Source: Escherichia coli (GTDB taxonomy: Bacteria; Pseudomonadota; Gammaproteobacteria; Enterobacterales; Enterobacteriaceae). From it: 64,000 nt of DNA. The position numbers and the translations under genes were made by a program. Under the pieces are notes generated by a model. That model searched no databases. It was given only the letters and a program-made list of their open reading frames with translations, and was not told the DNA's origin. Numbering within the stretch: position 1 is the stretch's first letter; each line of letters opens with the position of its first letter. Location of the stretch: the NCBI RefSeq assembly GCF_017348835.2, contig NZ_CP071375.1; one strand, given 5' to 3'. Positions 53,285 to 57,770 of this stretch are shown here, one piece after another.

Positions 53285-53610
53285 CAGTAAGGCCTTTTTA
53301 TTGGATAAAAACGAAACATATCTCGATGAGCTAAGTGAACAATCAAAAACTCTATCCTCAAAAATGAAAAATACTCCAGCCGAAGCATCCAGATAAATAT
53401 CTTCAGTAGTACTTAGTGCTGATGTCCGTCCTAATGATTGCCCACGAAGTTTTATATCCTGTACGATAAATTAAAAAAACCTTATCTTATCAATAAGAAT
53501 TCGTCACTCAGGACGTGAAATGATGAAAGAGAAAAAAACATCTCTCAACAATAATGTGAACCGCCCCGGAAATCCTGGAGACTAAACTCCCTGAGAAAGA
53601 GGTAAACAGG

Positions 53611-53937
53611 ATGACTAAAAATACTCGTTTTTCCCCCGAAGTCCGTCAGCGGGCGATTCGTATGGTTCTGGAAAGTCAGGATGAATATGACTCACAGTGG
53701 GCGGCAATTTGTTCCATTGCCCCAAAGATTGGCTGTACGCCGGAGACTCTGCGTGTCTGGGTTCGCCAGCATGAGCGGGATACCGGGAGTGGTGATGGTG
53801 GACTCACCACCGCTGAACGTCAGCGTCTGAAAGAGCTGGAACGTGAAAATCGTGAACTGCGCCGCAGTAACGATATCCTTCGCCAGGCTTCCGCTTATTT
53901 TGCGAAGGCGGAGTTCGACCGCCTCTGGAAAAAATAA
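53611..53937 (+). CDS. IS629-like transposase OrfA
   Basis: 108-aa [25 protein letters not shown]... with helix-turn-helix and leucine-zipper region. Confidence 0.85.
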
Positions 53938-54824
53938 TGCCACTGCTGGATAAGCTGCGTGAGCAGTACGGGGTCGGACCGGTATGCAGCGAACTGCATA
54001 TTGCCCCGTCAACGTATTACCATTGTCAGCAACAGCGACATCATCCGGATAAACGCAGTGCCCGTGCGCAGCACGATGACTGGCTGAAGAAAGAGATACA
54101 GCGCGTATACGATGAAAATCACCAGGTATACGGTGTGCGTAAAGTCTGGCGTCAGTTGTTACGGGAAGGTATCAGAGTGGCCAGATGCACTGTGGCACGT
54201 CTCATGGCAGTTATGGGACTTGCCGGTGTTCTCCGGGGTAAAAAGGTCCGCACTACCGTCAGCCGGAAAGCCGTTGCCGCATGCGACCGCGTAAACCGTC
54301 AGTTCGTGGCAGAACATCCAGACCAGTTGTGGGTGGCTGATTTTACCTGGGTAAGCACATGGCAGGGCTTCGTTTATGTGGCGTTCATCATTGATGTGTT
54401 CGCCGGATACATCGTGGGATGGCAGGTCTCATCATCCATGGAAACAACATTCGTGCTGGATGCACTGGAGCAGGCGTTGTGGGCCCGTCGGCCGTCCGGC
54501 ACAATCCATCACAGTGATAAAGGTTCTCAGTATGTATCGCTGGCCTACACGCAGCGGCTTAAGGAAGCCGGATTACTGGCATCAACAGGGAGTACTGGCG
54601 ACTCGTATGACAACGCGATGGCGGAGAGCATCAATGGTCTTTACAAAGCGGAGGTAATACACCGTAAGAGCTGGAAAAACCGTGCAGAAGTGGAACTGGC
54701 CACACTCACGTGGGTGGACTGGTATAACAATCGACGATTGCTGGAAAGGCTGGGCCATATTCCTCCGGCAGAAGCAGAAAAAGCTTATTATGCTTCCATC
54801 GGAAATAATGATCTGGCAGCCTGA
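53937..54824 (+). CDS. IS629-like transposase OrfB (DDE catalytic domain)
   Basis: 295-aa ORF overlapping orfA; IS3-family integrase-core sequence. Confidence 0.85.
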   Translation: MPLLDKLREQYGVGPVCSELHIAPSTYYHCQQQRHHPDKRSARAQHDDWLKKEIQRVYDENHQVYGVRKVWRQLLREGIRVARCTVARLMAVMGLAGVLRGKKVRTTVSRKAVAACDRVNRQFVAEHPDQLWVADFTWVSTWQGFVYVAFIIDVFAGYIVGWQVSSSMETTFVLDALEQALWARRPSGTIHHSDKGSQYVSLAYTQRLKEAGLLASTGSTGDSYDNAMAESINGLYKAEVIHRKSWKNRAEVELATLTWVDWYNNRRLLERLGHIPPAEAEKAYYASIGNNDLAA

Positions 54825-55704
54825 GTTCACAGATAAAACACTCTCCAGGAAACCCGGGGCGGTTCACTCCGCTACACGGGTAGCGATCTTTGAACGATCC
54901 GCAATAGTTTTAAACCCACCGCCGCCCTGCCTTGCCAGCGTGACGAGCTGCTTACTTAATTTAGACATATCTGTCCTCCTTCACTAAGAAATACAGATCA
55001 AGATCTTCTCCCAAAATAAGGAAACGAGCACGATCTGTATTCTGGATTTTCACACAGAACTGATACATCTGGCCCCGACGGTACGGTTAGGTTTTGCGCT
55101 TCCTGCGTCTCGACTGATATCTGTGCATCGGGGTGACAATATGTTGAGTTTTTACGAGGTTCCCCAGCTCGCAGAGCTGTTCGCGGCGTATGCCGTCCTG
55201 ACGTTAGTCAGACTACCTCCATACGTCAGCTTTCACTGACATTGCCATCGATACCGAGTCGAATTTTCTCCTGAAGTTGATACGTCTGCTCTCATGGTTT
55301 CTCCGTGAATGGATGCGTTCCGTGATAAGACGTTATGGTTAAAAAGTGTGCTTAAAGATGCTATTTCCCCAGTCTGAACACCGTGACTACGTGTGCGTCA
55401 GACTGTACAGAGTGCTGAAAGACCGCATTCCGTCTGCTAAGACGGTGCCCTTTCGCGCAGCGTCACTTGGTATCGCTAACGCGCTTACACAAGTGACGCT
55501 GCACATATCCCGCCGCCAAATGCTGCCCTTGCAGATGCCAAATGTTCCAATTGGCATAGCAACGTGCCGCAAATGTTACCGGGATAAGCTGGACGTAAAT
55601 CCATAGAAAACAGCTTTAAGGATGTCGGGCAAACGTTGTTGCCCTGCGTTGAAGTGTACCTTTATCGCGTTTGCGATCACCGTTCTCAAAGGTTAAACGG
55701 TGTT

Positions 55705-55831
55705 ATCGCCCGAAGGCTTCGTCTCTCAGATTACGACGATTTTGGCTGCGGCCACCCGAAGGCATCAGTCTCAGGCCGCGCTTCTTTCCCTATGATATTG
55801 GCTTGCGATCACCCGAAGGCGCTTCTCTCAA
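55705..55831. repeat. Three direct repeats of a cccgaaggc...tctc motif, about 22-24 bp each
   Basis: atcgcccgaaggcttcgtctctcag / gccacccgaaggcatcagtctcag / atcacccgaaggcgcttctctcaa at roughly 46- and 57-bp spacing. Confidence 0.6.
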
Positions 55832-55992
55832 ATCGCTGGCACAGTTCCGCTTGCGCTGAAGCATTGGCTGTTGTCGGAGACAACGGTGTAACGCTCGGAG
55901 AATAAAACTTTCTATGAGATCTTTCAATATATTGCTTTAATTTTCAGCATCTATTAATCTCGATTTATAGCGACATTGATAGGGAAATATTA

Positions 55993-56421
55993 ATGGAAGG
56001 CGTAATAAAATGGTTCAGTGAAGAGAAAGGGTACGGATTCATCACTGCCGCGAATAATATAGATTACTATTTTCATGTCAGTGATATAAAAGGCTCATTG
56101 CTTCCTGAAAAGGGGCAAAATGCTCATTTTAATGCAGAATCGACATCTAAGGGCCATAGGGCAAAAAACATTACTCTTACAAAGAGTAATATTGCATCAG
56201 ATAATCGTCTGGATTTTTGCAAAAACTGTAATAAAAAAATCATTCCAAGAATGATTACCCACAGGGGTGAACCACAAAAAACCGTTTGCCCTTACTGTGC
56301 AACAGTAATAAAGAATTTCGATGAGAATTTTTTGTTGAAATTATCACAACCATATTTTATTTTTTCACTTACATGTCAAAAATGCTCTTTGTTTTTATCA
56401 TATGGATATTTAAGACCATAA
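55993..56421 (+). CDS. Cold-shock-domain protein with C-terminal zinc-ribbon
   Basis: 142-aa ORF; N-terminus KWFSEEKGYGFIT...YYFHVSDI fits the CspA-type OB fold; C-terminus CKNC...CPYC. Confidence 0.6.
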   Translation: MEGVIKWFSEEKGYGFITAANNIDYYFHVSDIKGSLLPEKGQNAHFNAESTSKGHRAKNITLTKSNIASDNRLDFCKNCNKKIIPRMITHRGEPQKTVCPYCATVIKNFDENFLLKLSQPYFIFSLTCQKCSLFLSYGYLRP

Positions 56422-56439
56422 CCACCAAAAGGAAATAAC

Positions 56440-56769
56440 ATGCCTGACAAAATTAAACTTGAGATATTTTCAATTGAATACAGGAAAACTATTTTTGATT
56501 TATATAAAGATACATTTGTTTGCATAGCTATCGCTGTATTAGGAGTTTACTTAATTAAAAATGACTATCAATTTGTTGGATGGTCAACTTATATTATTGC
56601 TGGTGCATTATCTATACTGGCATCGACCACCACCATTAAAATGATTGGAGACAAACGAAAGTCAGAGGAAACAAGTAACTCAGGATTCTTGCTGTTGTTA
56701 TTCTTCAGCCTGTTTTCGATAATAATTCTAGTTGCTGGTTTAGTTAAGGGGGTAAAGGATGTTATGTAA
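56440..56769 (+). CDS. Small membrane protein, three predicted TM helices
   Basis: 109-aa ORF 19 bp after the cold-shock-domain gene; hydrophobic segments FVCIAIAVLGVYLI, YIIAGALSILAS, FLLLLFFSLFSIIILVAGLV. Confidence 0.45.
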   Translation: MPDKIKLEIFSIEYRKTIFDLYKDTFVCIAIAVLGVYLIKNDYQFVGWSTYIIAGALSILASTTTIKMIGDKRKSEETSNSGFLLLLFFSLFSIIILVAGLVKGVKDVM

Positions 56770-56792
56770 ATATCAAAAAAGGAGTATGCTTA

Positions 56793-57005
56793 ATGAACAA
56801 TAATAATAAATCATCTAGCCAAGCAGACTTCTGGACAGTTTTGTTTAACGGAGTAACAGAGATCGTAAAAATGATCTTTTCTATAATCATAGCTATTGTT
56901 GTTGCCGGAAGCAAAACCCCCAGTACATCAGCCGAAGATAAAACATTACATACAGGTTATCGGCATAATAACGACAAATCTGTACATTTTGACAATGATG
57001 CTTAA
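56793..57005 (+). CDS. Small membrane protein, one predicted TM helix
   Basis: 70-aa ORF; hydrophobic core IVKMIFSIIIAIVVAG; same strand and AT-rich composition as the two upstream genes. Confidence 0.35.
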   Translation: MNNNNKSSSQADFWTVLFNGVTEIVKMIFSIIIAIVVAGSKTPSTSAEDKTLHTGYRHNNDKSVHFDNDA

Positions 57006-57039
57006 CCTAATAAATATCCTCCGGCATAGCCGGAGGTTT

Positions 57040-57770
57040 TTCAAATGCGCCTATAAGGCTCTCTTACCAGCCGCGCCCTAACAGGCGCACACGATCTGAC
57101 ATTTGCATCCAACTTCGTTACTTACGGCCCGTAAACGGGCTGCCCGGATAGGGAATCGATAACTGCTCTCCCATTTTATCCTCTTCAAGCTGGTGCTTTA
57201 TGTAATCCTGTATCTTCGCCGTGTTCTTACCCACTGTATCGACGTAGTACCCTCTGCACCAGAACTCCCTGTTCCTGTATTTGAATTTCAAATCACCAAA
57301 CTGCTCGTAAAGCATCAGACTGCTTTTCCCTTTCAGATATCCCATAAAGCCGGATACGCTCATTTTGGGCGGGATCTCCACAAGCATATGGATATGATCT
57401 GCACAGCATTCAGCTTCCAGAATCCGTACACTTTTCCACTCACACAGCTTTCTCAAAATACTGCCTATTGCTCTACGCTTCTCTCTGTAGAACACCTGTC
57501 TTCGGTATTTTGGCGCAAAAACTATGCGATATTTACAGTTCCATCGGGTGTGCGCTAAGCTCTTTTCGTTCCCCATTGGGACCCCCTTTTGATTTCTTGT
57601 TTGACACTTGCAGTTGCCAGACCGCAAGGTGTTTTAACAAATCAAAAGGGGTTTTAATAACTGGCTCAAAGCTGAAAGCTTTCCGCAACCCCCAGCCTAG
57701 CTGGGGGTTTTCTGTGCACAAAAAAATAGGCAGTGAAACAGAACCCACTGCCTATCTCATAAAGTTAACC
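57040..57770 (-). mobile_element. IS200/IS605-family element (IS200-like)
   Basis: Single tnpA plus terminal hairpins (cccccagcctagctggggg; taggcagtg...cactgccta); about 0.7 kb; ends approximate. Confidence 0.6.
57118..57576 (-). CDS. tnpA: IS200-type transposase TnpA (Y1/HUH)
   Basis: ORF 57118..57627 trimmed to MGNEKSLAHTRWNCKYRIVFAPKYRRQVF...; HxH motif DHIHMLVEIPPK and catalytic Tyr region. Confidence 0.8.
   Translation of the reverse strand: MGNEKSLAHTRWNCKYRIVFAPKYRRQVFYREKRRAIGSILRKLCEWKSVRILEAECCADHIHMLVEIPPKMSVSGFMGYLKGKSSLMLYEQFGDLKFKYRNREFWCRGYYVDTVGKNTAKIQDYIKHQLEEDKMGEQLSIPYPGSPFTGRK

Follow-up and report, generated by a model that had tools for sequence, protein, structure and literature searches.

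Insertion sequences (ISs) of the IS629/IS1203/IS3411 isoform group, in which sub-types are 4–5% apart, duplicate 3–4 bp of their target on insertion, and matching flanks were found at only 21 of the 47 IS629 sites of four O157 genomes (PMC3271280). Genomic deletions have been associated with IS629, and those that depend on IEE take away from a few nucleotides to more than 40 kb of the DNA adjoining the IS; a one-ended strand-transfer model was proposed both for IS629 deletions and for those stimulated by IEE (PMC9943667). The locus described here lies in a stretch of 64,000 nucleotides of Escherichia coli DNA (contig NZ_CP071375.1, assembly GCF_017348835.2), which is called the window hereafter. 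It features an IS629-type element and an IS200 element, IS200C, on either side of a segment that carries a cold-shock-domain (CSD) gene, all within the remnant of an integrative and conjugative element (ICE) at tRNA-Phe. The window matches the chromosome of the pig strain E. coli PE164 (NZ_CP114128.1) over its full length, and comes from this strain or from an isolate nearly identical to it. With a probability of about 0.92, the locus combines an IS629 insertion with an adjoining 4613-bp deletion in the tRNA-Phe ICE remnant, while IS200C is an independent arrival and the DNA between the two ISs is native.

The ends of the IS629-type element (53557–54866, plus strand) can be read directly. It begins with TGAACCGCCCCGG on the left and finishes with CCGGGGCGGTTCA on the right, has TG...CA termini and is bordered by imperfect inverted repeats (53557–53581 and 54842–54866) that match at 22 of 25 terminal positions. 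Full-length matches number more than 4000, across thousands of E. coli records, and run from query position 1 to 1310. The start at 53557 is exact, and the coordinate offset of ~1 bp suspected in an earlier reading made from the letters of the DNA (the sequence-only reading) was not borne out. The flanks can also be observed directly: the 3-bp flanks are ATG (53554–53556) and CTC (54867–54869), and the 4-bp flanks, AATG and CTCC, likewise differ. The sequence-only reading had tentatively described the element as lacking a target-site duplication, with atg and ctc at its ends, and exact mapping of the ends agrees in that no matching duplication of 3–4 bp is present. Sibling copies from five other genomes, 99.6–99.9% identical to the element, have the same termini and are bordered by perfect 3-bp duplications in 5/5 cases (atc, cag, ata, cga and cag). 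Note that a mismatch between two 3-bp flanks is the chance expectation (63/64) and proves nothing alone; the proof comes from comparators free of the ISs. A simple IS629 insertion with a normal 3–4 bp duplication, mis-mapped by a base or two, would fit the ~1 bp uncertainty reported earlier. There is practically no chance of this, with termini fixed by the full-length matches and the five sibling copies, with flanks that mismatch at both lengths and that are found 4613 bp apart in IS-free relatives.

These IS-free relatives are the same conjugative element in E. coli MS1170 (whose locus, L002, provides the numbering used below) and in LF82. They are 95–96% identical relatives of the element in the window, not its direct ancestor. 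The comparison with islands lacking the ISs, which the sequence-only reading had proposed, exposes a loss of 4613 bp. The left flank aligns up to 53556 with MS1170 up to L002 7387, a position 37 nt into an SH3-domain gene, and the left end of the IS abuts codon 13 of this gene. The remaining 5' stub of 37 nt (53520–53556, plus strand) aligns to L002 7351–7387, where the gene runs on to 8532. The right flank aligns from 54867 with L002 from 12001, a position 102 nt into an integrase-domain gene of the minus strand (Phage_int_SAM_2/Integrase_1 domains), and the right end of the IS abuts its codon 34. The 5' stub of 102 nt (34 codons; 54867–54968, minus strand) corresponds to L002 12001–12102 of an 891-bp gene (PF12834) and is annotated as a pseudogene by the Prokaryotic Genome Annotation Pipeline (PGAP). 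Both breakpoints are direct observations, and alignment with LF82 places them identically. The 4613 bp that separate them in L002 are missing from the window, bounded exactly by the two IS629 termini. The lost DNA codes for the rest of the SH3-domain protein, ArdC, the product of a small open reading frame (ORF), an antirestriction protein of the ArdB/KlcA type and the products of two further small ORFs; it also comprises one copy of the STAXI motif and 789 of the 891 bp of the integrase-domain gene.

The absence of this DNA from the assembly was likewise observed directly. A megablast search with the 4613-bp segment over 20,395 records, which include the PE164 chromosome and plasmids, matched no PE164 replicon, and therefore the segment was deleted and not moved. 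It is present in 11 of 5426 complete E. coli genomes. Recombination between IS629 copies could in principle have produced an inversion or a translocation, with the 4.6 kb surviving elsewhere in the genome, and partners are plentiful, since ~32 places of the PE164 chromosome match the IS629-type element, making it an abundant IS there. PE164 is not among the 11 genomes that carry the segment, and such a rearrangement is very improbable. Within the window there are no other IS629 or IS200 copies that could act as recombination partners.

An assembly artefact has to be weighed too, in which the assembler would have merged two real IS629 copies on either side of the 4.6 kb, IS copies being classic points of collapse. 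Some uncertainty of polishing is suggested by four positions at which the window and the RefSeq record of PE164 differ. Three are found in the last 24 kb (54316, A/G; 55876, G/A; and one C missing from the C-run at 58086) and one is a mismatch in the first 40 kb (1–40123). The change at 54316 puts His instead of Arg in IS629 orfB, and the 1-bp deletion in the C-run frameshifts the traG remnant in the window. A different version of the assembly, or a sister isolate, may account for these differences. The record is, however, in its second version and represents a closed circular chromosome, the IS junctions are identical in the window and in RefSeq, and a collapse would also need 4.6 kb of unique sequence to be dropped from the whole assembly. 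An artefact is thus highly unlikely. The IS629 junction has, from all these comparisons, the properties of a real IS-bounded deletion, supporting the insertion followed by adjacent deletion or recombination put forward in the sequence-only reading. The IS is found without a duplication because the 4613 bp adjoining it were deleted, which left the unrelated half-sites ATG and CTC. The missing duplication is explained in this way and is no argument against membership of the IS629 group.

Two points weigh against this reading. The LF82 interval at the deletion is ~200 bp longer, and the size lost in the PE164 lineage could differ somewhat from 4613 bp. In addition, no precursor was found, as an IS629 is present at neither breakpoint in any of the 11 genomes with the intact segment, and because of this we infer both the succession of events and the mechanism by which the DNA was lost. 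In the first step, an element of the IS629/IS1203 group would have transposed into the leading-region side of the ICE. A deletion starting at one IS end would then have taken out the 4613 bp. This could have happened by homologous recombination of two IS629 copies in direct orientation, with ATG and CTC as their own duplications, or by a transposase-dependent one-ended event ("sloppy strand transfer", possibly assisted by IEE) in which an end of the IS would be joined to a site far away. Both routes lead to identical products and nothing in the sequence separates them; polymorphism internal to the IS cannot do so because the copies are all ~99.5–99.9% alike. IS200C would have inserted independently by the single-strand mechanism of its family.

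The two ISs are separated by 2142 bp (54867–57008), consistent with the ~2.2 kb of the sequence-only reading. The colinearity of this segment with the IS-free element is seen directly: 54867–57014 aligns with L002 12001–14150 at 96.5% identity. The segment contains, in this order, the integrase-gene stub, an EFASI RNA motif (55111–55262, minus strand; Rfam RF02957, 86.1 bits versus a gathering score of 51.2), a STAXI motif (55699–55885, minus strand; Rfam RF01728, 77.2 bits), the CSD gene and two genes coding small membrane proteins. The Rfam description (quoted in PMC12370729) has a STAXI followed by an EFASI a few hundred bp downstream and then by an integrase gene, and the arrangement in the window is exactly that. 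In intact elements the integrase-domain gene has direct STAXI copies on both sides, with an additional copy just 3' of the gene. MS1170 carries copies at L002 11004–11159 and 12836–13020; the copy at 11004–11159 is the one that the window lost in the IS629-bounded deletion.

A 2.1-kb segment of genes with low G+C content flanked by two ISs could be taken for the load of a composite vehicle, with IS629 and IS200 having jointly brought in the CSD genes. The two ISs belong, however, to unrelated families of different chemistries (DDE copy-out-paste-in and HUH single-strand transposition), the flanks of IS200C are contiguous in its empty site, and the segment has the same place, order and orientation in the IS-free elements of MS1170, LF82, Salmonella and E. 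albertii. We give this possibility next to no weight. Since the segment is colinear with IS-free elements at 96.5% identity, it was not delivered by the ISs and does not form a composite transposon. The DNA between the ISs is native ICE sequence in its original position, and IS629 and IS200C do not cooperate. The sequence-only reading was right that two unrelated ISs are present on the two sides of the CSD cargo, while the bracketing has no mechanistic meaning, the CSD genes being cargo of the ICE.

IS200C (~57009/57011–57719, minus strand) codes for an intact TnpA of the Y1_Tnp (HUH) family (57118–57576, minus strand; 6.5e-37) and carries an art200/STnc490 RNA (57586–57709; Rfam RF01405, 143.8 bits, full model). 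Its empty site in MS1170 (L002 14143–14150) reads CCT-AAAAAAA-TAGG, with a run of seven A, and the window reads CCT-AA-(709 bp)-AAAAAAA-TAGG. The AA at 57009–57010 is ambiguous and the element is thus either 709 or 711 bp long, with a duplication of 0 or 2 bp. Five further IS200C copies from unrelated loci exactly share the ends AATAAATATCC...TTTTCTGTGCAC. There are no terminal inverted repeats, and the left-end hairpin (57689–57711) is consistent with that described for nt 12–34 of IS200 (PMC4513863). As its flanks adjoin each other in the empty site, IS200C inserted without any rearrangement. It is a clean, simple insertion, without deletion, in the A7/T7 run of the traG terminator. The intrinsic-terminator hairpin of traG (57727–57756, minus strand) folds at -20.5 kcal/mol and is followed by the T7 tract that was the target of IS200C. 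The end coordinate of 57770 given in the sequence-only reading is ~50 bp too far, as IS200C ends at ~57719–57721 and the remainder comprises the terminator hairpin and the stop codon of traG. In all six copies (loci L011–L015 and the window) there is a stable hairpin (-12 to -20 kcal/mol) whose T-tract directly adjoins the left end of IS200C; this suggests a strong target preference or selection for terminators. The observation agrees with the excess of terminator-like sequences reported immediately upstream of IS200/IS605 elements (bioRxiv 10.1101/2025.07.22.666184).

The IS629-type element is a complete IS3-family member of 1310 bp, as defined by its sequence, by full-length copies elsewhere and by its HTH_Tnp_1 and rve domains. 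Both its genes are intact: orfA (53611–53937, plus strand) codes for a protein with the Pfam domain HTH_Tnp_1, and orfB (53937–54824, plus strand) for one with the DDE domain rve. The overlap of the two genes carries an ALIL frameshifting pseudoknot (53892–54008, plus strand; Rfam RF01497, 120.3 bits), and the programmed -1 frameshift that joins orfA and orfB is annotated by PGAP in PE164, where the element is labelled merely "IS3 family transposase". The closest copies, 99.5–99.9% identical, are from O103:H2, pig and cattle strains. Identity to copies that PGAP names IS1203 or IS629 is 95.6–96.7%, which makes the element a sub-type within the IS629/IS1203/IS3411 isoform group. The ISfinder rule, whose reference is the named element itself, defines isoforms by a nucleotide identity of at least 95%.

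The CSD gene (55993–56421, plus strand) codes for a CSD and a zinc ribbon, as identified by Pfam (CSD), by comparison with the 148-aa proteins of MS1170 and LF82 and by the family alignment. In this family a CSD is combined with a CxxC...CPxC zinc ribbon and a hydrophobic tail. The family is small, with 38 proteins (cluster representatives) at E ≤ 0.001, and its named organisms are enterobacteria only. Distant CSD relatives of 190–210 aa adjoin GmrSD/Z1/DUF4420 genes. Relative to MS1170 and LF82, the gene in the window is frameshifted near 56330 (56320–56440), and the conserved hydrophobic carboxyl-terminal tail (EIITTIFYFFTYMSKMLFVFIIWIFKTITTKRK) can be read only in another frame. The CSD protein of the window is probably inactive, or truncated, because of this frameshifted tail. 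The gene is followed by an ORF for a partner, a predicted membrane protein of 109 aa with two hydrophobic segments (56440–56769, plus strand), that is conserved beside the CSD gene in the Salmonella copies, and by an ORF for a predicted membrane protein of 70 aa with one hydrophobic segment (56793–57005, plus strand). The small membrane proteins have no significant Pfam match, and PADLOC, applied to the cargo proteins, recognised no more than the generic domain of the CSD protein and had no match for either membrane protein.

The cargo slot that separates STAXI from traG was compared across several loci (L018, L019, L020, L021, L023 and L025). It is occupied by the CSD module in PE164, MS1170/MS1266, LF82/NRG857C, Salmonella and E. 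albertii, by a RES-domain toxin gene in YZ_2_1 and IDR1900005638, and by other hypothetical genes in Res13. From this distribution the CSD genes are variable-slot cargo of the ICE and not of the ISs. That the module is anchored in the membrane, binds single-stranded nucleic acid and serves in defence, exclusion or establishment is doubtful as matters stand. Some potential for novelty is found only in this bracketed cargo, that is the protein with CSD, zinc ribbon and membrane tail and its one or two small membrane proteins, and not in the ISs.

The region 49509–58764 is, from its gene content and attachment sites, the remnant of an ICE of the SPI-7/PAPI-1/ICEclc type in tRNA-Phe and not a functional member of this group. 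The attL side is the tRNA-Phe (GAA) gene pheV (49433–49508, plus strand; identified by ARAGORN and annotated in PE164), and attR (58717–58764, plus strand), where the remnant ends, repeats the 3' part of tRNA-Phe with a ~98% match in a 49-column alignment. Next to attL are found an intact gene for the ICE tyrosine recombinase/integrase (49721–50683, minus strand; Pfam Phage_integrase and annotation) and an intact gene for a relaxase/helicase of the TraI_2 type (50694–52085, minus strand; Pfam TraI_2 and TraI_2_C). Two conserved ICE genes, coding for proteins of 289 and 74 aa, lie between traI and IS629 (52181–53284, minus strand); these two proteins have neither Pfam nor PADLOC matches. The relatives in MS1170 and LF82 carry the integrase, the TraI_2 relaxase, ArdC, the antirestriction protein, TraG_N and TIGR037xx proteins, and also a conjugative ATPase, ParA/ParB and a DnaB of the SPI-7 type. 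The remnant covers 9.3 kb in the window versus ~47.7 kb for the element at the same pheV site in MS1170, and ~7.2 kb of the ~47.7 kb of ICE DNA survive.

A second deletion contributed to this shrinkage. The 3' remnant of traG (57765–58550, minus strand; TraG_N, identified by Pfam on the RefSeq version) aligns to L002 14145–14976 and is joined, at 58550/58551 (58538–58565), to a 5' remnant of parA (58551–58693, minus strand; aligned to L016 2504–2727) that corresponds to its first ~40 codons (CbiA/ParA domain, residues 1–40 of the fusion). The join occurs at the imperfect microhomology CGGATAAxCxCCA and there is no IS at this position. In the PGAP annotation the fusion is a TraG_N protein of 298 aa. 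This IS-free deletion of ~35.8 kb removed the whole conjugation apparatus: the genes for type G mating-pair formation (the TIGR03745–03757 set, TraG_N, TraU and the conjugative ATPase) are deleted in the window except for the traG fragment. With the mating-pair apparatus and the antirestriction genes gone, the remnant cannot transfer itself.

The remnant is followed, after attR, by a very large minus-strand gene (59032–64000) for a LifA/Efa1-like toxin with a TcdA/TcdB-glycosyltransferase domain (2978 aa in RefSeq). The unoccupied site is found in strain C7, where tRNA-Phe is followed directly by this large gene for a toxin with a TcdA/TcdB-glycosyltransferase domain, and the ICE was therefore inserted in tandem before the toxin island. 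In PE164 (L001 28000–31002) and in C7 (L029), pheV is only ~21 kb from tRNA-Ile/mug/rpoD, and an IS1 and genes of a CP4-type island (DUF5983, DUF957 and DUF4942) are located in between. The corresponding distance in K-12 is ~105 kb, which would imply a lineage-level inversion between islands.

The missing duplication at the IS thus shows where 4.6 kb with antirestriction and leading-region genes were lost, and the tRNA-Phe element is a non-transferable ICE remnant that precedes a large-toxin island. The suggestion that the ISs mobilise the CSD genes is removed. An IS-bounded deletion in a decaying ICE is routine genome decay of a kind well established for IS629, and the genome itself had been made public and annotated before; the clean IS coordinates can serve the study of IS629-driven decay in pig-associated E. 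coli and have little significance beyond correct annotation.

The locus can be compared with four described systems. The tRNA-Phe element shares with ICEs of the SPI-7/PAPI-1/ICEclc type, as found in LF82 and MS1170, the attL and attR sites in tRNA-Phe, the integrase and the TraI_2 relaxase. The order integrase-domain gene, EFASI/STAXI, cargo slot and traG is also that of the LF82 and MS1170 ICEs, from which the remnant differs by the absence of the mating-pair apparatus and of the antirestriction genes. A DNA segment between two ISs is reminiscent of a composite transposon. Composite transposons are, however, built from two copies of the same IS, while the segment is bordered here by an IS3-family DDE element and an IS200 HUH element and is native to the locus. 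IS200C is a typical IS200: it is ~709 bp long, codes for a single Y1 HUH transposase, has a terminator hairpin at its left end, lacks inverted repeats, carries art200/STnc490 and inserted without rearrangement; nothing substantive sets it apart. The IS629-type element has the 1310 bp, the TG...CA termini, the imperfect inverted repeats of ~25 bp, the -1 frameshift, the ALIL pseudoknot and the rve DDE domain of the IS629/IS1203/IS3411 group, and differs from the named IS629 and IS1203 copies in that the present sub-type shares only 95.6–96.7% identity with them. Its situation in the window is that of IS629 in enterohaemorrhagic E. coli, where copies without duplications and IS-adjacent deletions are well documented (PMC3271280, PMC9943667).

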